This document shows, piece after piece, positions 20,387 to 64,000 of a stretch of DNA of 64,000 nucleotides (the first letter of the stretch is position 1; each line of letters begins with the position of its first letter). The stretch comes from a virus (Duplodnaviria; Heunggongvirae; Uroviricota; Caudoviricetes): IMG/VR virus record IMGVR_UViG_3300028030_000006, positions 29,611-93,610 of that record; one strand, written 5' to 3'. The notes beneath the pieces were generated by a model that had not been told where the DNA came from, did not search any database, and saw only the letters and a list, made by a program, of their open reading frames with translations. Made by a program: the position numbers and the translations under genes.

Positions 20387-20541
20387 ATTTTAGGCACCTC
20401 TACAACTGTAACTTCTTTTGTTATGTATCTTATAATATACCATAATGCTTGTAACTTCGAGTCTACCAACTCGTACTCGTACGAGTTTGTCTTTTTATCG
20501 TATATAGATACTAAATATGCTGTGCTATATGCTTTTTTCAT
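20383..20541 (-). CDS. Small ORF (52 aa) translationally coupled to the flap endonuclease
   Basis: RBS AAGGAGACAATTA precedes the ATG (revcomp 20539-20541). Its stop TGA overlaps the FEN ATG (ATATGA). It is below the ORF-track size cut-off and contains a 10-bp palindrome, CTCGTACGAG. Confidence 0.3.
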   Translation of the reverse strand: MKKAYSTAYLVSIYDKKTNSYEYELVDSKLQALWYIIRYITKEVTVVEVPKI

Positions 20542-20557
20542 TAATTGTCTCCTTTAT

Positions 20558-20866
20558 TCATTTACTCTCGATAATTTCGCGTCGTAACAGCATTTCTTTA
20601 TATTTTTCGACGCGACTCCTGTAGCCTACACACTCACGATATGCGATGAGCTCTGCAAAATCCTCTCTGCTAATAATCTGCAGTTTGGCGGAATACTCAA
20701 CATCTCCAAACATTGTACTAAACCGTTTATTTATTTGTGTGTGGCCTAATAAAGTTTCAGCTGCCTGCTCCGTAAGTCTTCTTTTTACCATACCTTCAAT
20801 AGTCTCTTGCGGTTGTTGCTCCAACAACTCATGAGAAACCTTTACTGTGGCTAATACCTCCTGCAT
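20558..20866 (-). CDS. Hypothetical protein
   Basis: 102-aa ORF with RBS TAAGGAGGTACTA before the ATG. It lies downstream of the iteron region. Confidence 0.45.
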   Translation of the reverse strand: MQEVLATVKVSHELLEQQPQETIEGMVKRRLTEQAAETLLGHTQINKRFSTMFGDVEYSAKLQIISREDFAELIAYRECVGYRSRVEKYKEMLLRREIIESK

Positions 20867-21018
20867 TAGTACCTCCTTACTAATAAAAATTTGCGGAATT
20901 CTTTCCTTTACAACTCAGAGCTATGCTCTTCGTATAGATATAGGTATAGATTACTATAACGTATTCGTGTTGTGTCATATAACTAAATGTTATATCAAAA
21001 TACAAGTGAAATTTTTCA

Positions 21019-21070
21019 CAACGTTTATATGTTTTTATACTCGTTTATAGACGTTTATATACGTTTAAAG
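21019..21070. promoter_or_regulatory. Three to four copies of 'ACGTTTATA(T/G)' (ATATAAACG on the - strand) in an AT-rich spacer
   Basis: aacgtttatatg / ctcgtttatagac / gacgtttatatac / tacgtttaaagg lie within 52 bp. A related 'gacgtttatat' recurs at 54287-54297 in another large intergenic region. Confidence 0.4.
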
Positions 21071-21107
21071 GTTAGCGAAACATCGTGCTACAGGGGTCTG
21101 TAGAGGA

Positions 21108-21213
21108 TTCTCAACACTTGATAATGTAATTTCAACACTTGATAATGTAATTTCAACACTTGATAATGTAATTTCAACACTTGATAATGTAATTTCAACA
21201 CTTGATAATGTAA
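21108..21213. repeat. Five tandem 21-bp direct repeats (TTTCAACACTTGATAATGTAA). Iteron-like array.
   Basis: Perfect copies lie at 21130, 21151, 21172 and 21193, with a variant first copy at 21108. The array sits in a 360-bp AT-rich intergenic region between two - strand genes. Confidence 0.85.
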
Positions 21214-21227
21214 AAACTATAAAAACA

Positions 21228-21911
21228 TCATATTTTGGTTCTACGTTTCCATATCAGTGTTTCATATATCTCGTCATACTTTACACCACTAAATGTCGAT
21301 TCATCATCATTCAAAGCCTTAACAACTTTCTGTACTTCATATATATTTGCTTTTGATTTTGGTAGTCTGCAAATATCCACCATATCATCTAGCGTAATAC
21401 CTACACGCTTTCGTATGCGATTATCCTGCATCGTAAGATACCAGAACAAGGCGCGCTGGTGTGGTCCAGATAAGCGCATCAACATCTTAAGCGAAGCTGA
21501 AGCAAACTTTTCAGATAAATTTAAAAGGTATGGCGCTAAGCGTTGGTTGATTAGTAGTGTAATCTTCCCAGCTTTCCATATACTTGTCGTAAAAATTACT
21601 TCAGTGATACGTTTATCGGTGTCTTCGTCAGTAAACGTAACTGTGACGCCTACAGCCTTTTGTACAGCTAAAGCACAGTTACGTTTACTCATAGGCATCA
21701 AATCGGTGAAATCCTCCCAATCAATCTGTATAGGTTTTATTTCACAATCTCCGTCACCAGATGTACCGTTATGGATATGACTTATAGCGTAATACATAAG
21801 GGCTGCTGTATTGGCCTCTTTAGGTACATCTATCACATGTCTAGCCATATCATTACGCATCACCACTTGATAATTTTCAACATTACGTATATATCCTTTA
21901 CGCTTACTCAA
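21228..21911 (-). CDS. Hypothetical protein adjacent to the iterons (possible DNA-binding or replication-associated)
   Basis: 227-aa ORF, basic, with no recognised motif. Its position directly upstream of the primase and beside the iterons suggests an origin-binding role, but this is inference only. Confidence 0.45.
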   Translation of the reverse strand: MSKRKGYIRNVENYQVVMRNDMARHVIDVPKEANTAALMYYAISHIHNGTSGDGDCEIKPIQIDWEDFTDLMPMSKRNCALAVQKAVGVTVTFTDEDTDKRITEVIFTTSIWKAGKITLLINQRLAPYLLNLSEKFASASLKMLMRLSGPHQRALFWYLTMQDNRIRKRVGITLDDMVDICRLPKSKANIYEVQKVVKALNDDESTFSGVKYDEIYETLIWKRRTKI

Positions 21912-22825
21912 AACTCATCTCCTGGATCCCATATTATAGGTTTGGCTAAGCCTTTACTTTTAACACCTTCTAGAAACTCATTAGCGTCCTTATATGGCGA
22001 GTTACGTACTAGTGTGACCATTGGATGGGCTACAATATTGAACCACTGCGAGTAGTATGGGAGCACACTAACCATACCTAATTGTCCAGCCTTGTCATTA
22101 TCGAAGGCTATAGTTATATCCTCTACACCTATAGATATTAAATCTTCAATACGCCGTATTGTTGGAGGCGATACGCCAAACGACGGTATCGATGGAACAC
22201 CCATTTGGATATAGGATACCGCATCCATAATACCCTCCGTTAAGACTACATGCTTAACTTGTTGTTCTTTTAACTGATCGTAGCGATATACAATTGAAGT
22301 AGCTGGCATAAGTTTAGGACGTAACCATTTAGCCTCTTTAGCTCGCGCTGTGTCGTCAACAATACGAGCATCAAACCCTACTGGAGCGCCTCTATAGTAG
22401 ATTGGGAAAATGTAACGACCTCTAAATCTGCCACGACTGCAATAATAAACACCAAGCTCCTGTAATAGCTTACTAGATATACCTCTCCAGTCCGTAGAGA
22501 CATAATAATCTATAGGCGGAAGATTTACCTTAGTAAAGTCTGCAATATCTTCAGCGTCCTCTGTCAGAATATTGGAATATCTCATCTGCCATAGTAGTTC
22601 TTCTTCATCTACCCCGGCAGTATCATCTTCTGTTATAAATTTCTCGGAGTGTCCACAACTGAAACAGTTAAATATGGCACTGTGTTTATTTATCCCTGCT
22701 GAAGGGTGCGTATCGTGGTGTTCTGGATTTATGCAACGACATTTGATCCAATCCGATAATGGGTTGTCAACATAGTCAATATGAAGTCTATCTAACTTCT
22801 TCTTGATTAGTTCTGTATAGTCCAT
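21908..22825 (-). CDS. DNA primase (CHC2 zinc finger plus TOPRIM)
   Basis: 'CINPEHHDTHPSAGINKHSAIFNCFSCGHS' is a CHC2 zinc finger. 'VLTEGIMDAVS' and 'IAFDNDKAGQ' are TOPRIM motifs. Confidence 0.7.
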   Translation of the reverse strand: MDYTELIKKKLDRLHIDYVDNPLSDWIKCRCINPEHHDTHPSAGINKHSAIFNCFSCGHSEKFITEDDTAGVDEEELLWQMRYSNILTEDAEDIADFTKVNLPPIDYYVSTDWRGISSKLLQELGVYYCSRGRFRGRYIFPIYYRGAPVGFDARIVDDTARAKEAKWLRPKLMPATSIVYRYDQLKEQQVKHVVLTEGIMDAVSYIQMGVPSIPSFGVSPPTIRRIEDLISIGVEDITIAFDNDKAGQLGMVSVLPYYSQWFNIVAHPMVTLVRNSPYKDANEFLEGVKSKGLAKPIIWDPGDEF

Positions 22826-24301: not shown

Positions 24302-25534
24302 TTAGGCATTTAATCTAATGCCGGTATCTTTAAATTTCATCCAATGTAAACGTCCTTCGACTAGACTATGGATTAATTTAGCGTATCTATTTTTAACTGC
24401 ATATACTACAAATGCGTCCTCATCAGAGGCGTCTAACTTTTTAGTGTAGAGCACTACTGATGAACTAAAGACTAATTCAGCAGATCCTCTAGATACTAAT
24501 GACACATTGTATTCATTTTCAATCTTAACTTCTGCTACCTGAGCTGCAGTTACAACAACAATTCCGTGCGTTACCGTCATTTTATGTAGGGATTTTACTA
24601 AATTACTCAGCGTTTTCCATGAGTCTGTTGCTGTAGAAGATCCGATCAATCCTAAGTAGTCAATATATACACCTCTAACGTCACTTGTTTGGGCTTGAAC
24701 AGATACCATAGCTAGTAGCTCTTTATCATCTAACTGCTCTGTGACAATCTTAAAGTCATCTTGACGTTCACCCCAAAATTCTTTCATTTTAGTGTCAATA
24801 AGTTTTCGTTCTTCTTCAGTAAGGCTATCTTGAATTATCTTATTGAAATCAATTTCACAAACATGAGATTTTAAACGAGCACCTAATGCTTTAGCTGATA
24901 ACTCTAACGAAATAAATAGAACAGCTTGACCTTCTTTAAAGGCCTCAATAGCAGACGATAACAGTTGTACAGTTTTACCGCCACCGGAGCTTGCTGTAAT
25001 AAGAGTAACGCCTGAAAATCTATTACCTAACAGTTCATCAAATTCTTCTCCAAATCCTGATGGGACGCTGTGTATTACTTCATCATTGTCCATAACATCA
25101 GCCATAGCGTTTATCTCTACACTACCTAATGATACTTCTTGCAAGGTCTCAGCTAGTAATGTTTTAACTGTGTCGAAGTCTTTATTACGTTGAGCTTCAA
25201 CTAGCTGCTCCATTTTATCGTCTACAGCGCGTAGTGTCCTTGCACCTTTTAAACCGGATATAACTTCATCATCGCCAACGTCTGAAACATCTTCAGGTAA
25301 AGCCTCTACGACAGCTTGAAATGGGCCTACCACGTTAGCAGGTGCTCGATTAGCTATTGTCGCTGACAGTGATAACTTATTTGGTAAGGTACTGTTATCT
25401 GCATAGTGCTGAATGATTAGTGAATATATTTTATTCTCTTTCCCTGTAAATAAGCTCTCATCTAAATCTTGTAATATTGTAATATTGCCTTTTAGTAATT
25501 TAGCTAAGGCTAATCTTTGATAGTTTATTCGCAT
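24302..25534 (-). CDS. DnaB-like replicative helicase
   Basis: Walker A 'TLITASSGGGKTVQLL' and Walker B-like 'VLFISLE' are present, as is the H4-like 'GVYIDYLGLI'. It is adjacent to the primase. Confidence 0.65.
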   Translation of the reverse strand: MRINYQRLALAKLLKGNITILQDLDESLFTGKENKIYSLIIQHYADNSTLPNKLSLSATIANRAPANVVGPFQAVVEALPEDVSDVGDDEVISGLKGARTLRAVDDKMEQLVEAQRNKDFDTVKTLLAETLQEVSLGSVEINAMADVMDNDEVIHSVPSGFGEEFDELLGNRFSGVTLITASSGGGKTVQLLSSAIEAFKEGQAVLFISLELSAKALGARLKSHVCEIDFNKIIQDSLTEEERKLIDTKMKEFWGERQDDFKIVTEQLDDKELLAMVSVQAQTSDVRGVYIDYLGLIGSSTATDSWKTLSNLVKSLHKMTVTHGIVVVTAAQVAEVKIENEYNVSLVSRGSAELVFSSSVVLYTKKLDASDEDAFVVYAVKNRYAKLIHSLVEGRLHWMKFKDTGIRLNA

Positions 25535-33132: not shown

Positions 33133-33879
33133 TTAGATAGAGTATATCGGAAAGCTGCTTAAAACTTCCTTAATCTCTGCTTCAGTTACATTATTTGGTA
33201 GCGTAGTCTGATCTTTCCATGATGGTCCAATATCTAACTCAGCTTCGTTGTGGATAACTTGATTCTCACAATAATCTTGTACCATATGAGGGATAAGGTG
33301 GTCGTTTAACCATTTAATACTCTCAACATCAGCTTTCACTAAACCATACAAGGCATCATGTATTTGGTTAGTTACAATAACGTAATCTTGCATACTATCG
33401 TGCTCAATATCTTCTTGTAACCCAATACCAGCTCTGTTCATCAATAAACCGTATGACTGAATACTCATATTATTTAAAGTTCTACCTTCTTTACCAGCAA
33501 TAATACGGTCATTGCTCCATATCCTAGGGGTACGTAATTTTAACCCGAAAGCTCCAATAATGTATCCTGTAGCTTTCGATTTACGTATGTTCTCTTCTGC
33601 AAATTTAGCAGTACCGTAGTACAGCTCATGGTACCCGTCATAAACTGCATTTGCTACAGTTTTAGAGCACTTCAATAGATCCTGTATCTTACCTGGACCT
33701 GAACCATAAGCCATCGCAAAAGATGGGCTTTTACTTTTCGCCCTAATATCTGGCAACTCTGTTTTAATTCTGTTGATGGACTTTGGATCACTCATATCCA
33801 ACTCTTCGCCTAACGCTTCGTCTATCTCGTCTTTAAAGAACGCGTAAGCTCTTAGACTATGTCCATCGAACCCTTCACC
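33133..33879 (-). CDS. DNA polymerase A, C-terminal part (exon 2 or second polypeptide): O-helix (motif B) and motif C
   Basis: The open frame extends upstream of the track start (a TTG at 33801) to a stop at 33880-33882. It contains 'IRAKSKSPSFAMAYGSG' (motif B, R..AK...F...YG) and 'NQIHDALYG' (motif C, with HDA in place of HDE). Confidence 0.6.
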   Translation of the reverse strand, partial: GEGFDGHSLRAYAFFKDEIDEALGEELDMSDPKSINRIKTELPDIRAKSKSPSFAMAYGSGPGKIQDLLKCSKTVANAVYDGYHELYYGTAKFAEENIRKSKATGYIIGAFGLKLRTPRIWSNDRIIAGKEGRTLNNMSIQSYGLLMNRAGIGLQEDIEHDSMQDYVIVTNQIHDALYGLVKADVESIKWLNDHLIPHMVQDYCENQVIHNEAELDIGPSWKDQTTLPNNVTEAEIKEVLSSFPIYSI

Positions 33880-34393: not shown

Positions 34394-35341
34394 TTAAGGT
34401 TCCTTTGTAATACTACCTAGGTATTTTGTGGTAATTTCGGTAATATCTTGGGTGTAAAGTTCAGTATTTCCTGACCTAATTACTTTTCGTCCGTAGTACT
34501 TGAATGGTTTTAATATTCCAGCTAGGTCAGCCTCTGCCTTATATGCTAATTCGCTAGAACCAAACGTATGCTGGTAGAGTACTATGTAAGGTTCAGGCTC
34601 TCCACTAAACCTATGTTTTACTGTATGTATAGTAACTCCAAGCTTCCATAAATTAAGTCGGGTAAAGTATATGACATACAAGAGTGTTTTAGTTTCTATG
34701 TCTTTATTTAAGTACCCTCGGTTACATAATGGACATCCTTTCCCTTTTCGATGGTTTTGATAGTCTTGTCTCACCTCGCCATGCACAGGACAGTCATAGA
34801 TAATCGTTGGATTTGCATCGACGCGTGCATAGATTAGGTCTTTATATGTATAAGTATGATTATGTGTTTGTATTAGTAGAGGTATTACCTGCTTTAACAT
34901 TACACGCTTCTGTTTGGCTGATGATAGAAAACCACAACACTTACAACCCTTACCTTGTAGATGATCATATTTTCTCTGTTTTCTAATACCATGCTCCATA
35001 CATATATAATAGACGTAATGTTTATCGATTTTTACATAACTATACTGATTATTATGAATTTTAGAGCAACGAATTTTAAAATCTTTAAATGATATCCTCC
35101 GATTAAGACCACGCTGCTTTCTAGCACAGATAGGACACCCATATTTAGTCTTGAGAATACCATCTGGCGTACTAGTAAAGTCTCCATGTAACTTACATGT
35201 AAATACTGATTTACATTTTGCACAAGAAAAGCTAAATTTATCTGTTAGAATCTTGCCATGGAATCTATTTTTGATTCGTTCTCTGTAAACCATAGAATAA
35301 TCTTTCACTTTACTTTCCTTCTGTTTTGTTGTTAATACCAC
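34394..35341 (-). CDS. Homing endonuclease-like protein: N-terminal Zn-ribbon repeats plus C-terminal T5orf172/GIY-YIG-superfamily domain
   Basis: Repeated CxxC pairs (CAKCKS, CPICARK, CKCCG, CPLCNRG) are present. The C-terminal 'LLYVIYFTRLNLWKLGVTIHTVKHRF...AEADLAGILKPF...GNTELYTQD' fits the T5orf172 pattern. The gene is located inside the polA interruption. Confidence 0.55.
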   Translation of the reverse strand: MVLTTKQKESKVKDYSMVYRERIKNRFHGKILTDKFSFSCAKCKSVFTCKLHGDFTSTPDGILKTKYGCPICARKQRGLNRRISFKDFKIRCSKIHNNQYSYVKIDKHYVYYICMEHGIRKQRKYDHLQGKGCKCCGFLSSAKQKRVMLKQVIPLLIQTHNHTYTYKDLIYARVDANPTIIYDCPVHGEVRQDYQNHRKGKGCPLCNRGYLNKDIETKTLLYVIYFTRLNLWKLGVTIHTVKHRFSGEPEPYIVLYQHTFGSSELAYKAEADLAGILKPFKYYGRKVIRSGNTELYTQDITEITTKYLGSITKEP

Positions 35342-35605: not shown

Positions 35606-37393
35606 TTAGGCGCTCAAAGATTCAAGCGCCGCGTAGTCAGACGACCAAAATAAATAACCTTCTGGGGCGGGAAAGCAGGCTTTAATCAATTTTCCCATCG
35701 CCCCTTTTGAAGGGAGATTCGCGAAGTTTGGTGAGTTACTACTCAACCGACCTGTTACAGTTCCTCCAAGACGTTGATTGCCGTACAGACGTCCAATATC
35801 TCCTTGCCCTACATCTGTCCAAAGATCTTCAAACGCCTTCAAGAATGTTGATAGTACGATACTAGTCTCTGAGATAGTTATAAGATTTTCTAATGCCTCC
35901 TTAGCATCCGGATCTGTTACTTTATCTAAAAACTCTATAATACTGTCACGATTAGTTTTAGGTTGCTTTTTATCTGTAAAGTCAATAGGCTCAAACTCTA
36001 GAATATCAAAGAGTAATACACGTAGCTGAGCAGAACTATTAGGGTTAAATTTAAGATCCACAAAATCATCCGCAGTTTTCTTTTTAACTTTAGTCTTAGC
36101 ATTATACTTATCAGCAGCCTCTAGACGTAGTTGTGTTAGAGCCTGTTTGACGTAGAAATTATCTTGCAACGTATCCATAGCTGCATCATAGAGTTTCTTA
36201 ACGTGTATTTTTGCTTCTTTTGTCTTTGTTTTTGAGATAGGCAACCCGGCTACCATCATATTTACTAAGTACTTTAAAGAGGGTTGAATAATAATACGAT
36301 ATGTATCTTCTTGCTCTTCTTCTTGCATAAGCTTATAGTATTTATTATAGACCCAAAACGTGCCTACTACATCCATTGCATTGTACTTATAGAGAGTATC
36401 TTTAGGTAAAGCTAGTACGTCTTTAACGTCGACTGCATAATCACCCAAGTACTCATAAGCTAAGTCCTTCAAAGATAATGAGAATCTAGATGTACTATTC
36501 AAAGATAAAAATGCCATTAGCATCGTATCTTCCGAATCTAAATAATTAGCACCTAACGTACGCCCAATGTGATCTAAAGGGTCTGCCATAAACAGATGAC
36601 GCACTAAAAACTTAGCATCAAATAAATAGTTATGGAAAATCTTAACACCATTGTAAGCAATAAAAAACTCTTTAAGCCAACCTTTAACTTCTTCTGCTTT
36701 ATCTTTACGCTCTTGGTCAGTACCTTCCCACAACGATTCATGTATAGGTAAAGTAACCGCTTGAGTATCAGACCATGCAAATGCAATAGACACCAACTCA
36801 TCACGCTCAAAGCGTAAACCTGTAGCCTCAATATCAATAGCTAGTATATCTTTGGATAATAGATGCTGTAATTCCCTCTCAGTACGTATTACCTTATAAA
36901 AATCAAACTTGAATTTTTTATCTTCTATTTCCTCATGGTTCATCTCAGCGGCTATACGTTTTAATGCTAAGTCTTGAGTTTTCTGCCGATCAGGGTACAT
37001 TTGAAGTAACACATGACTAAGCATAGGAATTACTTTAATATGCTCATAGCCTGAAATAGCACATTGAAAGGCTTTACCAGCATTCTTTTCAATGCCTTTT
37101 GTACCAGCTAAGTAATAAAAATACTTTGAATCTGTAACAATGATACGTTCAATCCCAAGTGTATCACACTCGTCTAACACCTCACTAGCACTTTCCACTA
37201 AATCCTTCTTTTTCAGATTTCCTGTAGCTGGGTAGTATAAGCCAATAGCTCCTATGTCAGCACCTGCAGGCACCTCAGTAGAGTATTTACTTATTGGGTA
37301 GATATAATTTTTTAGTATGAGATCCTTTTTGAGATTCACTTGCTTAACTAGTAACGCCGTTGTTTGATTAGTATCTATACCAAATCTTAACAT
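35606..37393 (-). CDS. DNA polymerase A, N-terminal part (exon 1): 3'-5' exonuclease domain plus polymerase palm up to motif A
   Basis: Exo I 'LAIDIEATGL' is present. The polymerase region ends with motif A 'FWSSDYAALE' and then runs into an in-frame stop after 'SLSA'. Confidence 0.7.
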   Translation of the reverse strand: MLRFGIDTNQTTALLVKQVNLKKDLILKNYIYPISKYSTEVPAGADIGAIGLYYPATGNLKKKDLVESASEVLDECDTLGIERIIVTDSKYFYYLAGTKGIEKNAGKAFQCAISGYEHIKVIPMLSHVLLQMYPDRQKTQDLALKRIAAEMNHEEIEDKKFKFDFYKVIRTERELQHLLSKDILAIDIEATGLRFERDELVSIAFAWSDTQAVTLPIHESLWEGTDQERKDKAEEVKGWLKEFFIAYNGVKIFHNYLFDAKFLVRHLFMADPLDHIGRTLGANYLDSEDTMLMAFLSLNSTSRFSLSLKDLAYEYLGDYAVDVKDVLALPKDTLYKYNAMDVVGTFWVYNKYYKLMQEEEQEDTYRIIIQPSLKYLVNMMVAGLPISKTKTKEAKIHVKKLYDAAMDTLQDNFYVKQALTQLRLEAADKYNAKTKVKKKTADDFVDLKFNPNSSAQLRVLLFDILEFEPIDFTDKKQPKTNRDSIIEFLDKVTDPDAKEALENLITISETSIVLSTFLKAFEDLWTDVGQGDIGRLYGNQRLGGTVTGRLSSNSPNFANLPSKGAMGKLIKACFPAPEGYLFWSSDYAALESLSA

Positions 37394-49341: not shown

Positions 49342-49650
49342 CTATTCTCCAATTTTCAATAACTTTAATGCGTACTCTGTACCATCTTTAAAACCGTCTA
49401 AATATGTTACACCATCTGGTATTTCTATAGCATCCCCTATAGTCTCTACTAAACTTATTGCTTCGTCCTTATCACTCGTTGTATATACATTTGTAGCACC
49501 AGGAGTTCCGTGTAGTGATATATCTACACGATAAATAGGTTGTTTAGTATCCCAATGGACATCTTCAAAGATTGACACACTAGCAATAGCCGATGGGACA
49601 ATAAAAATTGGGTTTTTATTTATTTCTAGCCTCATATTATTTTCCTTCAT
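49342..49650 (-). CDS. Hypothetical protein
   Basis: 102-aa ORF. Confidence 0.35.
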   Translation of the reverse strand: MKENNMRLEINKNPIFIVPSAIASVSIFEDVHWDTKQPIYRVDISLHGTPGATNVYTTSDKDEAISLVETIGDAIEIPDGVTYLDGFKDGTEYALKLLKIGE

Positions 49651-50233
49651 CGAATAACAGTTCAGCTATTTGTTTTATGTTTTTATAGTGCAAGTTATCC
49701 TCTTTTTCAGCTTTAGCTATTAACTCATCTAAAATCCCATAAAAACAACCTCTATTAACGTATATAGTATTGTTATACCTTACCAAAGTTAATACACCAT
49801 TCTCATAACCGATATGGGATATAACTTTTATATCCTTTTGTCTTTTTAACTCAATGTCATCAAATAAAGTACCATATAATTTTGTATATAGCTTTGCATT
49901 ATTAAACATTATTGCATTATTAAACATTGCTGCATTATTAAACATTGCTGCATTATCATATAGCTTTGTATTATTGAACATTTCTGCATTATCATATAGC
50001 TTTGTATTATTAAACATTGCTGCATTATCATATAGCTTTGTATTATTAAACATTGCTGCATTATCATATAACCAACAAGTACCTTCTTGACTTAAGTTAT
50101 GTTCGTTGTTTACATAACCCCCTAAATCACCTTTTTTAACATTACCAAAGTCTTTTAATGCTTTAATTTGATAATTAACACCAGCACCATAAAATTTATG
50201 GTTTGGTTGTAATTTTATTAATTCATATTTCAT
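49637..50233 (-). CDS. Hypothetical protein containing an in-frame tandem 12-aa repeat (KLYDNAAMFNNT)
   Basis: The 36-bp DNA unit 'attatcatatagctttgtattattaaacattgctgc' is repeated about 3 times, plus 18-bp sub-repeats, at roughly 49890-50075. Confidence 0.45.
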   Translation of the reverse strand: MKYELIKLQPNHKFYGAGVNYQIKALKDFGNVKKGDLGGYVNNEHNLSQEGTCWLYDNAAMFNNTKLYDNAAMFNNTKLYDNAEMFNNTKLYDNAAMFNNAAMFNNAIMFNNAKLYTKLYGTLFDDIELKRQKDIKVISHIGYENGVLTLVRYNNTIYVNRGCFYGILDELIAKAEKEDNLHYKNIKQIAELLFDEGK

Positions 50234-50698: not shown

Positions 50699-51595
50699 TT
50701 ACCTCATCAGAAAGTCTTTAACACTTATATCGTTTTTAAATAGATACTTCGCTACATCGCCGAATGATGTTAATGGGTACCCTTTTGCCAGTACCGCAGA
50801 AATAATATATGATCTAGGGTATGTGTCAAGCTCTTCTAGTAAATGTACCAATCTAGCACATTTAAATGGTTTTAACATATCTATAATATCTTTTACATGT
50901 CCAGGGTGTGTTACAATAACTTCCCATAAAGATGGTGATATATTACAGTGTTCAACAGACGTAGTACCATCATCAGCAGACGTAGTATCATCATCATCAG
51001 CAGACGTAGTATCATCATCAGCAGCAGACGTAGTATCATCATCAGCAGACGTAGTATCATCATCAACAGATGTAGTATCATCATCAGCAGACGTAGTATC
51101 ATCATCATCAACAGACGTATTACCTCGTGTAGCTGTTAATAAAAGGCCTATAATTGTAGTCCCGCTTGGAGCATTCTCCAACTGCTCAGCTAGCTGTGTG
51201 ACTGTTAAGTCACCTACATCTCTTTTTGTATGTACACCTAAGAAAAATAGAGCTGTAGGCAATTCTGTAAGTACTTGATCTAATACGTGCAATTTTTCAG
51301 ACTCTTGATTGTCTTTGAGTAACTTTTTAATTTTACTTATATCAGAGATCTTGTGAAGCTCCTCCCAACTAAGAGATTTATTAGTACCTGTATGACCATT
51401 AAGCTCATCTCTCATCCGTCTATTTATACCAGACCAAAAAGCGTAACCTTCGGGAGTCATATCCCAACTAAATGCAGTAACTAGGGTAGTATATTTATCA
51501 GTACAACTAATGTCACATTCTCCAATGTTCTCTTTTACAGCTTTCCATAAGTTATTGACTTGAAGCCATTGTTTTTGTTGTTTATTAAATTTCAT
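50699..51595 (-). CDS. Hypothetical protein with an acidic (D-D-D-T-T-S-A)n tandem repeat
   Basis: The 21-bp unit 'gacgtagtatcatcatcagca' is repeated about 7 times at roughly 50945-51125. Confidence 0.45.
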   Translation of the reverse strand: MKFNKQQKQWLQVNNLWKAVKENIGECDISCTDKYTTLVTAFSWDMTPEGYAFWSGINRRMRDELNGHTGTNKSLSWEELHKISDISKIKKLLKDNQESEKLHVLDQVLTELPTALFFLGVHTKRDVGDLTVTQLAEQLENAPSGTTIIGLLLTATRGNTSVDDDDTTSADDDTTSVDDDTTSADDDTTSAADDDTTSADDDDTTSADDGTTSVEHCNISPSLWEVIVTHPGHVKDIIDMLKPFKCARLVHLLEELDTYPRSYIISAVLAKGYPLTSFGDVAKYLFKNDISVKDFLMR

Positions 51596-54120: not shown

Positions 54121-54549
54121 GTTAGATGTAGGGATTAATACTAATAGTGAGGCTACCTCACATATGCTTAATGAGTACGAAGCTCAAAATAGGCAATTAA
54201 GCCAACAATTTTATATATATATATATGCGTGTTAGGTGACTATATTTTCGATGTCTGATACATAAGATAGGTTTAAATAGTCCTCTGTAGACGTTTATAT
54301 TCCCATGAAATAAATCCTGTATTAAATTGAAGCAATTAGATTAATGAACTCTAGAGTCTAAAATCAATCTAAATATTCATTGAATATAGTATTTATATCG
54401 TTGGAATGTAAGCTGTCTTCAGAAGGACATTTAAAGATTGTATACTGTATTATATTAATATTGGAGAACCTCCAAATTACTGATTAGTTTAACCAGTTAG
54501 CTATCAAACACAAAATAAAAGATACTCGTTAAGAGTATTTAATAGCCCG

Positions 54550-60512: not shown

Positions 60513-61005
60513 TTTCGTTCTCCTTAATATGTTTATTTATGTTAGCCCAGAAATTATACCCTTCCGGTGTGTCTTTCCAACAAAAAGCGCTTTGAAGTGT
60601 TATAGTGCTACTAATACTTCGGTAATCGTTAGTACGTTTTATATATTGATATATACGCTTTTTTGTGCGTTTCCATAATTTAAGACGTTTTAGGTTATGT
60701 TTTTCAGCCTTATCAAACTGAATTACCAACTCTAAACATATAATATCTGACAGACAGACAGACTTCTTGAGGTCTGTAACCCCTTCAGGTAAATATTCAG
60801 CATACGTAGGTTCGCCTGGCTCATTCTGATTCCTGTCCGTATATTCACGAATCGTACTAGTGGAATGTATTTCGTCGACGTCTACTAGTTTTAACACTTG
60901 TCCAAATTTTCTCGAGTCGGTAGGACTAACCACTTTAAAACGGCACCCTACAAATTTGGTCCAGTTGGCATCAAGTTGTGGAGCTGTCAATATTAACTTT
61001 TTCAT
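60505..61005 (-). CDS. Hypothetical protein, paralogue of the downstream gene (tandem duplication)
   Basis: 166 aa with RBS AAAAGGATAATACAATG. It is the first gene after promoter P2. Confidence 0.45.
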   Translation of the reverse strand: MKKLILTAPQLDANWTKFVGCRFKVVSPTDSRKFGQVLKLVDVDEIHSTSTIREYTDRNQNEPGEPTYAEYLPEGVTDLKKSVCLSDIICLELVIQFDKAEKHNLKRLKLWKRTKKRIYQYIKRTNDYRSISSTITLQSAFCWKDTPEGYNFWANINKHIKENENA

Positions 61006-61067
61006 TGTATTATCCTTTTATGTTTTTGTTTGATATTAGGTATGTGTATTATTAGGTAGGGTATTGA

Positions 61068-61150
61068 GTTACCTATTGGGTTACTTATTGGGTTACTTAT
61101 TGGGTTACTTATTACGCTACCTATTGGGTTACTTATTACGCTACCGTTTA
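61068..61150. repeat. Short tandem repeats (GGGTTACTTATT / ACGCTACCTATTGGGTTACTTATT) in the transcribed leader downstream of promoter P2
   Basis: Directly visible. The track ORF 61002..61193 merely translates these repeats (SNPI/SNPIG). Confidence 0.8.
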
Positions 61151-61202
61151 GCGTATCTCTATAGGTGTAAGTACCTATTACCTCTGCCGGCAATAGGTTT
61201 TT

Positions 61203-61231
61203 ATTATATCCAGATTTGAGCTTTTTGTCAA
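61203..61231 (-). promoter_or_regulatory. Consensus sigma-70 promoter P2 (TTGACA-17-TATAAT) directed into the - strand operon
   Basis: The reverse complement of 61203-61231 reads TTGACAaaaagctcaaatctggaTATAAT. It sits inside a ~140-bp element duplicated at 62456-62585. Confidence 0.7.
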
Positions 61232-61277
61232 GCGATTTCGCTTAAAACCATCTTAAATTTACAAATTTCAGGTAGAT

Positions 61278-61493
61278 TTAAGCCTTGACCATCGCTTTCG
61301 CTTTTGGTGTGAGGTAGTAGTCCAGACCTAACACCGTCTCCCGCAGCTCCAATAGTCCTGCTTGTATAGCTTTAGCCGGGCTTTTAACAAGCTTATTGTA
61401 AAGCTTGAATTGGCCTTTTAAGCTTGTACAACTTTCGCTATTTTCATGATGGTAGGTTTGAGACCCGCCTCCGACAAACTCTCCGGCTATCAT
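61278..61493 (-). CDS. Hypothetical protein (G+C-richer island gene)
   Basis: 71 aa. Codon composition is shifted relative to the rest of the window. Confidence 0.35.
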   Translation of the reverse strand: MIAGEFVGGGSQTYHHENSESCTSLKGQFKLYNKLVKSPAKAIQAGLLELRETVLGLDYYLTPKAKAMVKA

Positions 61494-61741
61494 TTCAAAC
61501 CTCCACAGTGTTTAGGGAAGCCATTACTATCGAGACGTGGTGTCATACCCGCCCCGTAACGAGATTCGAGAATTAAATATTCCCTATAACTTTGTGGGTC
61601 ACAATAAACTGTGACGTTATTGGGTCTATTGTACTGTTGAGGTGTTGTATATGATTCAGTATGTAGACCGCCCGCACTCTGACACGCTGAGAATGTCATA
61701 ATTATTGCGACGATGCCTAAGGCGTATTGATGTAGTTTCAT
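61490..61741 (-). CDS. Small lipoprotein (signal peptide plus lipobox FSAC)
   Basis: 'MKLHQYALGIVAIIMTFSACQSAGG' is a lipoprotein signal with the Cys at +1. The mature part is about 63 aa. Confidence 0.5.
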   Translation of the reverse strand: MKLHQYALGIVAIIMTFSACQSAGGLHTESYTTPQQYNRPNNVTVYCDPQSYREYLILESRYGAGMTPRLDSNGFPKHCGGLK

Positions 61742-61751
61742 GATATATCCT

Positions 61752-61979
61752 TTACTTGATTTCTTTTAATAGTTTGGTACAACGCTCCGCTTCTAGGCGG
61801 AATATCTCCCTATCGAGTTGAAGCGTTGTTTGTTCGGAGCGCCTATTTAGCAATTTTATGTGTACTCTCTCACAGACGTTCAGAGCTTCGCCAATAGTTG
61901 GTATATGCTTTACCCTTCGCAGAGCGATAAACTCCGCCTCAGGGAAGCATATACCACATTTAGACATACCTAATCCCAT
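61752..61979 (-). CDS. Small Cys-containing protein (possible TraR/DksA-like zinc finger; tentative)
   Basis: 'MSKCGICFPEAEFIALRRV...C' has a CxxC near the N-terminus. Length is 75 aa. Confidence 0.3.
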   Translation of the reverse strand: MGLGMSKCGICFPEAEFIALRRVKHIPTIGEALNVCERVHIKLLNRRSEQTTLQLDREIFRLEAERCTKLLKEIK

Positions 61980-62167
61980 AGTTCATCGAGCCGTGAGACA
62001 GGTTTCTTCGTAGTCGCCAAATCTTGACGCTTCTTAATAGTTAGGCGTCCTAGTTTTGCCGCCCTAGTTAGCGGCATTTTATTTTGAGGAGGTTTCGTGG
62101 TGTTTCGCTGCGCAGAGCGTTGGGTATATGGCTCCGCCCCTCTTATGTGGGTTCTACAGTTTATCAT
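61970..62167 (-). CDS. Hypothetical basic protein
   Basis: 65-aa ORF. It is the first ORF downstream of promoter P1, after a ~340-nt leader. Confidence 0.3.
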   Translation of the reverse strand: MINCRTHIRGAEPYTQRSAQRNTTKPPQNKMPLTRAAKLGRLTIKKRQDLATTKKPVSRLDELWD

Positions 62168-62384
62168 AATGATTCCTTTGTATAGTAAGAGCGATACGCT
62201 CTAAGTGACGAATAAGGTTCGTTTGGAGGCGTTAGTATCTAACGCGGACTAAAGGTGTTAAGAGATTTAATAATCCCTCCAGAGATACATATTTAGTAAC
62301 TTAATATGCTCGATAAGAATTGGAGACGGTTTATATAGGTTAGTAGGATATGTATCTATGTAAGGATTGTGAGGTACTGTGTAT

Positions 62385-62435
62385 ATTGAGCTACCTATTG
62401 GGTTCGTTATTGAGCTACCTATTGGGTTCGCTAAA
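62385..62435. repeat. Tandem repeat (GAGCTACCTATTGGGTTCG(T/C)TA..) in the P1 leader. Related to the P2 leader repeats.
   Basis: Two direct copies are present. They share the 'CCTATTGGGTT' core with 61068-61150. Confidence 0.75.
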
Positions 62436-62512
62436 CGGTATCATAATAAGTTAGCGTTTAGCGTATCTCTATAGGTGTAAGTACCTATTACCTCTGCCGG
62501 CAATAGGTTTTT

Positions 62513-62541
62513 ATTTTACCCAAATTTTCCGTTTTTGTCAA
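62513..62541 (-). promoter_or_regulatory. Near-consensus sigma-70 promoter P1 (TTGACA-17-TAAAAT) directed into the G+C-richer small-gene island
   Basis: The reverse complement of 62513-62541 reads TTGACAaaaacggaaaatttgggTAAAAT. It is in the same register as P2 within the duplicated element. A 57-bp stretch immediately downstream (62456-62512) is identical to 61146-61202. Confidence 0.65.
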
Positions 62542-62678
62542 GTGAAATCACTTAAATCTACCTGAAATTTGTAAATTTAAGCGTCCTCTAAGCTTATAGG
62601 ACGATTTCCGCCCACTTAGCCAACTTTGTTTCGAGCTTATCAAGCCAATCGTTTAAGGTTTTCATAAGGTTTCTCCTT

Positions 62679-62735
62679 CCCAGTTTTGGGGACGCCAAAC
62701 GCCCCAGTTTTGGGGACGCCAAACGCCCCAGTTTT
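62679..62735. repeat. 2.4 copies of a 24-bp direct repeat (CCCCAGTTTTGGGGACGCCAAACG), each forming a GGGG...CCCC hairpin
   Basis: Directly visible. Upstream of P1, in a non-coding region. Confidence 0.8.
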
Positions 62736-63252
62736 CATCCCATATTAAACCTTAAATTTAGCTTAAAAAGTTCGTGTAGGGTCGAAAAAATTCGAATGTT
62801 TTTCAAATTCCTTAAGCTACGATTAAGTTTATACTATAAGGAATTTTCGAGGTGGTTAAAAATTAAGCAGTCCGTGAATAGAAACTGCCTAAATTTTAAT
62901 CAGTTGGTTCGTTTCTTCTTTCGGCGATGAGGTTTCGCCTTTTTGCACCGAGGTGCTTTGATAATACCCCGAAACCTCGGTTTCGGGTTCAGCACTTCCT
63001 CGTGTTGATGCTGGTATCGCTGCAATGGTGAGCGGCAAGCCTCTCGGAACTCTGGGTCGTCCAGAAAGCGGTCGCCCAACTCCGAGAACGCTATCGTCCC
63101 GCGGTTGATATGGTATGACATAGGTGTACTCCTATATTGGTATATGTTCGATAAACGCCCCAATCTAGGGCGCTTGGTAGAAAATATGAAGATAACAGAC
63201 GGACGCGAAACGATACCATTTAACGATACCGAAACATCCGCCGAGCGGTAAT

Positions 63253-63310
63253 TGAAGCCCGCCCAAAGACGGGCGAATACTTGAAGCCCGCCCAAAGACG
63301 GGCGAATACT
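63253..63310. repeat. Two copies of a 29-bp direct repeat (TGAAGCCCGCCCAAAGACGGGCGAATACT), each containing a CGCCC/GGGCG hairpin
   Basis: Directly visible. Confidence 0.8.
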
Positions 63311-63876
63311 TGTACTAGAGCCCTCCGCTATGGGGCTGTTGGCAATTACATAATTCATCTCCAGAAAATTTCAAAACGCTTGCCGCTCCTCCCGCTAGGG
63401 GCGACCCAATAAAGGACGCGAAACGGTATGATATGAAATTTGTAGAGACCACCCCTTGCCGTTTTGGGGTGATAGAGATACGCTCTCTATGGGCGTTTGA
63501 CGCCATCGGCACTACTGCTCTAGGTGACGCCACGGGATTTATACCCACCCGCTAAGGGCACTGCCGCCAATCTATCTTAGTACCCGATACGATAACCAAC
63601 ATTTCATAGAAAACCGCTATTTGCCTTTTACCCCGTGTCGCTTCACGGGAAGATTATAGGCGGTTTGACTAAAACCACTAAGGTCAGTTGGCTATATTCT
63701 ATGCGTACATAATACGCCCCTAAAGCGGGGATATAGCCCTTCGTGGGCGGTTTTGACGGGTTGCCATAATCTTGGAAAATTCGGGGGTTGTCGTTAATCT
63801 TGGATAAATTTTTGACAGAAGTCGCCCTATCCTACTAAATAGGGCTTTGAATTTTTAAGTTAGATACAATTTATAA

Positions 63877-64000
63877 GCCATACGCTAAGCCATACGCTAA
63901 GCCATACGCTAAGCCATACGCTAAGCCATACGCTAAGCCATACGCTAAGCCATACGCTAAGCCATACGCTAAGCCATACGCTAAGCCATACGCTAAGCCA
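63877..64000. repeat. 12-bp tandem repeat (GCCATACGCTAA) with at least 10 copies, truncated by the window end
   Basis: Perfect copies run from 63877 to the last base of the window. Confidence 0.9.

Follow-up and report, generated by a model that had tools for sequence, protein, structure and literature searches.

A candidate iteron-type replication origin downstream of a Rep_3-family initiator gene in a large uncultured tailed phage

A spacer between two genes of a tailed-phage contig carries two sets of direct repeats close to genes of DNA replication, and the question raised by this locus is whether replication of the phage begins here or whether the repeats are operators or sites of another kind. 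To our knowledge, the replication origins of most large phages are not known. An earlier note had taken the repeats for the iterons of a protein-primed or initiator-dependent origin and had named operators for a phage regulator as the alternative. In this study, the repeats, the neighboring genes and the related loci were analyzed. The window referred to below is the whole stretch of DNA that was analyzed, which comprises 64 kb of a 93.6-kb contig.

The spacer and its repeats

The spacer (20867–21227) is 361 bp long with a GC content of 28.8%, in agreement with the AT-rich spacer of ~360 bp described in the earlier note, and ranks second in size among the gaps of the minus-strand gene array at 9.8–61 kb, as judged from the list of open reading frames (ORFs). 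All of the flanking genes lie on the minus strand. In the order of transcription, the genes for a DnaB-like helicase, a GP88-family protein, a metallophosphoesterase, a DnaG-type primase and a 227-aa protein precede the spacer, and a 102-aa ORF, a 52-aa ORF, a 5′–3′ flap exonuclease, a 130-aa ORF and an SbcC-like ATPase follow it. The spacer was said to separate a basic, primase-adjacent protein of 227 aa from a small gene, and this is indeed its position: the protein has a pI of 9.1 and the 102-aa ORF lies downstream. The genes needed here are as follows.

20558–20866, minus strand: 102-aa ORF downstream of the spacer, with a strong Shine–Dalgarno motif
21228–21911, minus strand: rep, encoding a 227-aa Rep_3-family initiator with WH1 and probably WH2 (Pfam, PHROG, profile and predicted fold)
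21908–22825, minus strand: DnaG-type primase (Toprim_2 and zinc-ribbon Pfam hits, PHROG 47), overlapping rep from upstream
24302–25534, minus strand: DnaB-like replicative helicase (Pfam DnaB_C, PHROG 19, E = 1e-39)

Elsewhere the window encodes tail fibres, a split family-A DNA polymerase, ribonucleotide reductase, DNA ligase, Pnkp/RNA ligase, PhoH, ThyX, a sigma factor, lysozymes and helicases; the DNA is that of a large tailed phage which brings its own replisome. A protein-primed origin is not supported by this gene content, which includes a family-A polymerase, a DnaB-type helicase and a DnaG-type primase, with no terminal-protein system found in the window. The phage belongs to a lineage without cultured relatives and far from isolates: its helicase is ~25% and its Pnkp/RNA ligase ~35% identical to the nearest isolate proteins, and neither the region (as nucleotides) nor the 227-aa protein, Rep, gave a match in the phage collection.

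Within and next to the spacer, the following elements were located.

20977–21037, no strand: least stable duplex segment of the spacer, an AT-rich candidate unwinding region
21021–21069, minus strand: five phased 10-bp units, four of them recognisable, of the TATAAACGT type in the direction of rep; candidate unwinding-element repeats
21091–21114, minus strand: conserved box TTGAGAATCCTCTACAGACCCCT, 24 nt, GC-rich, overlapping the end of the last iteron
21109–21213, minus strand: five 21-bp iterons, head to tail; perfect tandem copies, unique in the window
21860–21874, minus strand: sixth, solitary copy of the iteron core, 14/15 nt, in the same orientation, at rep codons 13–17

The five tandem 21-bp repeats of the earlier note were recovered by Tandem Repeats Finder (TRF) as an array with a period of 21, 4.9 copies, 100% matches and a score of 206 (21111–21213). 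In the register TTTCAACACTTGATAATGTAA the copies start at 21109, 21130, 21151, 21172 and 21193, four of them being exact and one carrying 1 mismatch; the count comes from a short-read metagenome assembly in which repeats may have collapsed, and five copies are possibly a lower bound. In the direction of rep the unit reads TTACATTATCAAGTGTTGAAA, and 14 nt lie between the rep stop codon and the first iteron. At least three helix-phased tandem direct repeats of ~17–22 bp are therefore present beside rep, here as five units with a period of 21 bp, or two helical turns. No further site with up to 3 mismatches to the 21-mer was found across the 64 kb, for which shuffled sequences give an expectation of 0. 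The solitary core copy inside rep is the only extra match to the iteron core with at most 2 mismatches in the 64 kb and is unlikely to have arisen by chance; no extra copies were found near the 5′ ends of rep in the relatives described below, and the copy, whose significance is uncertain, may serve autoregulation or pairing. The 21-bp periodicity also gives rise to four sigma-70-like matches, TTGATA-N17-GATAAT, on the plus strand, antisense to rep, which may be incidental.

The short repeats beside the 21-mers, counted earlier as three to four, amount to four or five 10-bp units of the ACGTTTATA type. TRF describes them as the unit ACGTTTATAT with a period of 10, 4.7 copies and 72% matches (21021–21067), and on the plus strand, with 1 mismatch allowed, ACGTTTATA sites start at 21021, 21041, 21051 and 21061, against ~0.05 expected per 50 bp. 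Following the rep stop codon, the order of modules is 14 nt, the five iterons, a GC-richer segment of 39 bp, the 10-bp repeats (22% GC) and an AT-rich stretch, with 22–25% GC over the repeats and the AT-rich region together. In a nearest-neighbour stability scan, the segment 20977–21037 (z = 2.5) falls among the least stable 0.3% of stretches of 40–100 bp in the 64 kb and is not the least stable region of the window. By sequence, an AT-rich region and short repeats thus flank the iterons, as candidates for a role in unwinding.

Other features were sought in the spacer. No tRNA was found in it and no Rfam family reaches its gathering score there, the sole match at E ≤ 1 being a weak one to L19_leader at 21048–21086 (19.8 bits against a gathering score of 36 bits). 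RNA folding of the iteron and box region is no better than that of shuffled sequences (z = −0.27). No match to the DnaA box TTATCCACA with at most 1 mismatch lies inside 20867–21227, a result that weighs little here. Neither an inverted-repeat operator, which like the DnaA box is common on iteron plasmids, nor any inverted copy of the iteron was found; a separate promoter region for rep is also missing, its start overlapping the primase stop. The GC skew does not switch at 21 kb; it tracks the coding strand with a single switch near 10 kb and is uninformative on the origin.

The 227-aa protein and its relatives

By sequence and predicted fold, the 227-aa protein is a winged-helix initiator of the Rep_3/RepE type. 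Its sequence matches Pfam Rep3_N (PF01051, 'Initiator Replication protein, WH1') with an E-value of 4.1e-11 (43.9 bits against a curated cut-off of 22.4), as do all five of its close relatives, and it matches PHROG 4402, 'replication initiation protein'. A profile of Rep and its five closest relatives detects RepE in the PDB with an E-value of 6e-5 and aligns with canonical Rep3_N+Rep3_C proteins over residues 11–192 at 99.3% probability (E = 2e-20; hhalign). The earlier note had proposed a check of the fold, and this came out in favor of an initiator: an AlphaFold model (pLDDT 71, pTM 0.66) aligns over ~225 columns, essentially its whole length, with RepE54 of mini-F, π of R6K and the complexes of RepE with iteron dsDNA and DUE ssDNA, 8aan and 8ac8 (TM 0.60–0.69, probability 1.00), the top structural matches being 1rep, 7rva, 2nra, 8aan and 8ac8 at sequence identities of 13–17%. 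Pfam Rep3_C (PF21205) gives no hit to Rep at E ≤ 0.1; the alignment of the predicted structure with the two-domain RepE54 and π, and the reach of the hhalign match to residue 192, suggest a WH2. The rep gene starts with a TTG that overlaps the primase stop codon (TTGA), with AGGAG before it, and the N-terminal 'VENYxVVM' is retained in the relatives, which makes the long ORF and translational coupling to the primase gene plausible.

When 1.84 billion representatives of protein clusters were searched exhaustively with HMMER, 12 other proteins were returned at E ≤ 1e-3. A word-indexed protein search recovered Rep itself and nothing else, on the 93,610-bp JGI contig. Scans of IMG/VR with Rep or the family alignment found no relatives, a metagenome scan found nothing beyond two JGI contigs that were already in the set, and tblastn of Rep against all plasmids gave E-values of 0.01 or higher. 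Rep represents a compact and very divergent subfamily that is known solely from a handful of metagenome contigs. The loci of the five closest relatives, all on short metagenome contigs, were compared; their Reps are 23–54% identical to that of the window. A perfect tandem array with a period of 20–22 bp lies at the end of rep in four of the five, with start points that range from 9 nt short of the gene's end to 13 nt past it.

L002: 22 bp, unit GGTAATCTAGGGTGTGGTTATA, 3.9 copies, array reaching the contig end
L003: 20 bp, unit TGGTCAAGTTAGGTTTAAAA, 3.8 copies, array internal to the contig
L004: 21 bp, unit ACATCTAACATACGATTTGTG, 3.6 copies, array reaching the contig end
L005: 21 bp, unit TCGGGAATAGGGTGTATGGTA, 3.6 copies, array reaching the contig end

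These copy numbers are lower bounds because short-read assemblies break at tandem repeats, and three of the contigs stop inside the array. The same circumstance bears on the possibility that the array of the window is a product of chance or of assembly. The underlying data are short-read metagenome assemblies, and the truncated contigs might be taken as a warning; however, contig breaks at arrays are the expected effect of real tandem repeats, shuffled sequences give an expectation of no matches, and by our count five independent contigs from different samples have a like layout. An artefact is scarcely credible.

Between loci, the pairwise similarity of the iteron units is no higher than that of shuffled controls, and none is significant. 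What is kept is the position of the array, its period of about two helical turns and the identity of the copies within each array. An arrangement that stays in place while each initiator has a repeat sequence to itself is the signature of cognate iterons. Conservation in close relatives, which the earlier note had made a test of its reading, holds for the position and period of the array in four of the five loci, where the unit sequences are unrelated, as co-variation of iteron and initiator would have it; the exception is L001, which lacks a downstream array. L001 is the closest relative, with a Rep 52–54% identical to that of the window, and has the primase–rep order in common with it (primase 58% identical). 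No 21-bp array was found in the 116 nt after its longer rep ORF; a 13-bp array of 5.6 copies lies upstream of rep, between primase and rep. The Rep of L001 is also extended by 150 aa at its C terminus, and this part gave no Pfam hit and resembles nothing in the window.

L003 shows two further likenesses to the window. A 9-bp array of 2.6 copies lies ~50 nt after its iterons and is analogous to the 10-mers of the window. In addition, the 24-nt box TTGAGAATCCTCTACAGACCCCT is identical at 23 of 24 nt at the equivalent place in L003, in which Rep is only 29% identical and the iterons are unrelated, while the remainder of the spacer has diverged between the two loci. The box occurs once in the window, where it holds a hairpin, CTACAG-ACCC-CTGTAG, and its role may be to bind a conserved factor of the phage or the host, or to act as a hairpin for priming.

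The box partly resembles the core of the cobalamin riboswitch. A genome scan with the box gave two Clostridia matches, both of which are cobalamin-riboswitch cores; a cobalamin riboswitch was nevertheless rejected for the box itself, with no Cobalamin (RF00174) hit at E ≤ 1 in 20400–21700 and no B12 box in the spacer. The 84 IMG/VR matches to a 15-mer of the box were also discarded, all of them being chance or coding matches without an adjacent array.

The comparison of loci also bears on two functions other than initiation. Centromere-like and pac sites can consist of tandem repeats, and the array might accordingly be a partition centromere or a packaging-recognition site. Its conserved partner in the relatives is, however, the rep gene, and searches with Pfam and PHROG of ~40 ORFs of the window, with all but three of those of at least 120 aa among them, found no partition, integrase or terminase family, with ParA, ParB, ParR and terminase all missing from the scanned ORFs. 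Such a function is at best remotely probable. The second function, that named in the earlier note, is transcriptional: the repeats would serve mainly as operators, bound by Rep or another regulator, for the 102-aa gene or an antisense promoter, with no origin function. Rep_3 proteins also repress transcription and are known autorepressors, the gene that follows the spacer has a strong Shine–Dalgarno motif, and the four plus-strand sigma-70-like matches could be promoters. The promoter-like motif is, however, not reproduced in the unrelated iteron units of the relatives, and the sigma-70-like consensus may not be that of the host. Five identical sites that adjoin the gene of an initiator together with a module of AT-rich repeats suit an origin better, and a purely regulatory role is highly improbable.

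Comparison with known iteron systems

The closest likeness is to the class-A theta replicons of the Rep_3 (RepB) family, such as the lactococcal pCI305, pWV02 and pUCL22 and those of Acinetobacter, which share with the window a Rep_3 initiator (WH1–WH2 in these replicons, WH1 and probably WH2 in the window), tandem iterons of ~22 bp and AT-rich short repeats (PMC4490491). The order of such an origin is an AT-rich region, 3.5 copies of a 22-bp iteron and then rep (PMC4490491). The AT-rich region and iterons are thus upstream of rep in these replicons, whereas the window has the mirror order of rep, iterons and AT-rich region. The replicons also carry inverted repeats over the rep promoter, while the spacer of the window is without an inverted-repeat operator, and the window differs further in that its iterons are perfectly identical, its Rep is compact and divergent, and its setting is a phage replisome operon and not a plasmid. 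An upstream origin is typical of the Rep_3 class without strictly defining it; in the window and in L002–L005 the array is downstream.

Distant relatives of Rep are ordinary Rep3_N+Rep3_C proteins, with their DNA modules upstream of rep, and the comparison with related origins that had been proposed shows that iterons and short repeats occur together in the Rep_3 phage-plasmids D6 and KS14 as well.

L094 (plasmid-like contig): short repeats 13-mer, 2.8 copies; iterons 22-mer, 5.4 copies; upstream of rep
L092: no short repeats reported; iterons 21-mer, 7 copies; upstream of rep
Burkholderia phage KS14: short repeats 8–9-mer; iterons 22-mer, 3.8 copies; upstream of rep
Escherichia phage D6: short repeats 11-mer; iterons 22-mer, 3.9 copies; upstream of rep

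Rep_3 genes occur in ~20–25 of 50,697 phage records, mostly phage-plasmids (D6, KS14, phiSG1) or small plasmid-like entries. Like the window, the phage-plasmids D6, KS14, Sodalis phage phiSG1 and Clostridioides phiSemix9P1 have a phage-borne Rep_3 initiator with iterons. Their iterons are imperfect (70–87% matches) and their origins lie upstream of rep, whereas the iterons of the window are near-perfect and downstream; their rep stands alone among structural or partition genes and serves maintenance as a plasmid-prophage, whereas that of the window lies between primase and flap-exonuclease genes.

The downstream position leads to the alternative that the array titrates Rep as a copy-control or incompatibility locus and that replication initiates elsewhere. 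The control arrays incC of F and incA of P1 are located downstream of rep, and in mini-F the array at this position is incC and not ori2; moreover, the canonical Rep_3 loci listed above keep their origin iterons upstream of rep. In the window, however, the primase gene overlaps rep from upstream and leaves no room there for an origin, and the 64 kb contain no second set of iterons, barring the solitary 14/15 site inside rep. Next to the array there is in addition an AT-rich segment whose short repeats are phased, as is the hallmark of unwinding elements, and most members of this Rep clade that were compared have the array downstream. A control array with initiation at another place is therefore considered distinctly improbable.

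Other iteron systems share only part of the arrangement. Mini-F RepE/ori2 and R6K π/γ-ori have the logic of iterons plus an unwinding element in common with the window, and DnaA boxes, which are typical of DnaA-assisted origins of the pSC101, RK2, F and R6K type, are not found in its spacer. In phage λ, the initiator O acts on about four tandem iterons beside an AT-rich region and recruits a DnaB-type helicase (PMC7466680); O belongs to another protein family, however, and oriλ lies inside the O gene, whereas the candidate origin of the window is intergenic and its initiator is Rep_3/RepE-like. The PLE, a satellite of phage ICP1 in Vibrio cholerae, uses an initiator of the RepA_N family (RepA) and iterons together with the replisome of the lytic phage (PMC7145576), whereas the window is from a phage itself. 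The combination of an initiator, iterons and an AT-rich element for unwinding is already textbook for Rep_3; what is new here is the divergent and compact Rep subfamily, the position of the origin after rep, the perfectly identical iterons and the setting in a phage replisome operon.

Proposed initiation and its significance

With a probability of roughly 0.85, as judged from sequence, the spacer is an iteron-type, initiator-dependent (class-A theta-like) origin of the ~94-kb uncultured tailed phage, and the 227-aa gene encodes its cognate Rep_3 initiator. This reading is preferred because Rep is a full-length initiator, with WH1 and probably WH2, by Pfam, profile and predicted structure, because the array has the properties of iterons (five copies at a 21-bp period, beside rep and unique in the window), and because the layout of rep followed by an array is kept while the unit sequence co-varies in four of five relatives. 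It is further favored by the like modules of canonical Rep_3 replicons, with short AT-rich repeats and iterons of ~22 bp, by the location of the 10-bp repeats in DNA of low stability with 22–25% GC, by the place of rep in a replisome block with apparent translational coupling to primase, and by a spacer free of tRNAs and of Rfam families at gathering score. Of the two kinds of origin suggested in the earlier note, it is the initiator-dependent one, with iterons next to replication genes, that has gained support.

The initiation reaction that we infer for this origin comprises iteron binding by Rep, melting, helicase loading and use in lytic growth. Monomers of Rep would occupy the five identical 21-bp iterons, and a spacing of two helical turns would place the proteins on one face of the DNA. 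The resulting nucleoprotein complex would melt the adjacent AT-rich region with its phased 10-bp TATAAACGT units, and by analogy with RepE and TrfA the iteron-bound Rep may also hold on to a single strand of the opened element ('loop-back'). RepE and TrfA are the initiators on which the loop-back model is based (PMC10602881; PMC4081077), and their action requires repeated elements in the unwinding region (PMC4081077; PMC10602881); the structures of RepE obtained in that work rank first among the structural matches to Rep of the window. The DnaB-type helicase and DnaG-type primase of the phage, encoded in the same operon, would be loaded next at the opened origin.

A wider proposal can be put forward tentatively, with chances somewhat short of even: a small clade of large uncultured phages of the lytic type may have placed a Rep_3 initiator in the replisome operon, coupled to primase, and may use it for lytic theta replication from a rearranged origin 3′ of rep, with perfectly homogenised iterons, the 24-nt box perhaps as a priming or loading signal and the 10-mers as the unwinding element.

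The locus provides a concrete and testable pair of candidate origin and initiator for a phage lineage without cultured relatives, and it places a plasmid-type winged-helix initiator inside the helicase, primase and polymerase module of a phage. The iterons, perfect within a locus and unrelated between loci, go with Reps that are 23–54% identical to that of the window and form a natural series for the evolution of initiator specificity. If the host is identified, the cassette of rep and spacer may also become a compact replicon part.

Elements around the iterons and the conserved box

The conserved origin box, GAGAATCCTCTACAGNCCCC (21091-21114), matches the cobalamin riboswitch core in loci from two Clostridia metagenome-assembled genomes (L096 and L097). 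The riboswitches of both genomes also contain the B12 box; the phage spacer has no B12 box, and no match to the Rfam Cobalamin model was found in it.

Four overlapping sigma-70-like motifs (TTGATA-N17-GATAAT, 10/12 matches) lie on the plus strand at 21118-21209, facing the 3' end of rep in the antisense direction, and are present because the periodicity of the iterons generates them. The iterons, the conserved box and most of the 10-mers (the 10-bp candidate unwinding-element repeats) are enclosed by an inverted repeat; by a rough estimate, AT-rich DNA would be expected to contain about this much by chance:

21029-21039 and 21218-21228, perfect 11-bp inverted repeat, ATGTTTTTATA / TATAAAAACAT

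Relatives of Rep

The closest relative, contig L001, has an array of another unit length between primase and rep:

L001 896-968, 13-bp array of TAGATAACCCATA, 5.6 copies

Instead of a downstream 21-bp array, the Rep of this contig (985-2097) has a 150-aa C-terminal extension, for which no Pfam match was found. P0005 and P0008, two giant metagenomic proteins of 2568 and 2039 aa, each contain nine stretches that match Rep residues ~83-149, the C-terminal part of the winged-helix domain WH1. The stretches look like Rep-like modules repeated within a single polypeptide.

Other gaps and interruptions in the window

The largest intergenic gap in the minus-strand gene array, at 54121-54549 (429 bp), holds at position 54291 the only other exact copy of ACGTTTATA in the window, together with a (TA)7 run and some of the DNA with the lowest duplex stability across the 64 kb. 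The gap has no tandem array and is therefore probably a promoter region.

The family-A DNA polymerase is encoded on the minus strand in two ORFs (35606-37393 and 33133-33801). The ~1.8 kb between them, which may be a mobile insertion, contains a 315-aa ORF (34394-35341) with a weak match to DUF723, in a below-threshold stretch.

Further tandem repeats

Two sets of tandem repeats lie within ORFs and code for repeated peptide modules; they are not iterons:

49886-50070, 36-bp repeats, 5 copies, inside ORF 49637-50233 (PHROG 7964)
50952-51124, 21-24-bp repeats, ~7.5 copies, inside ORF 50699-51595

The right end of the window (61005-64000) is richer in GC (0.44); long ORFs are few there and tandem arrays numerous.

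Tandem arrays at the right end of the window
61062-61145, TATTGGGTTACT, 6 copies
62384-62430, 24-mer related to TATTGGGTTACT, 2 copies
62679-62735, CCCAGTTTTGGGGACGCCAAACGC, 2.4 copies
63252-63312, 29-mer hairpin unit, 2.1 copies
63874-64000, TAAGCCATACGC, at least 10.6 copies, continuing past the window end

A segment of ~60 nt is present twice (61146-61205 and 62456-62515), each copy directly following a TATTGGGTT-type array. For the region 61005-64000, possible readings are an early regulatory region, a terminal region or a second region resembling an origin.
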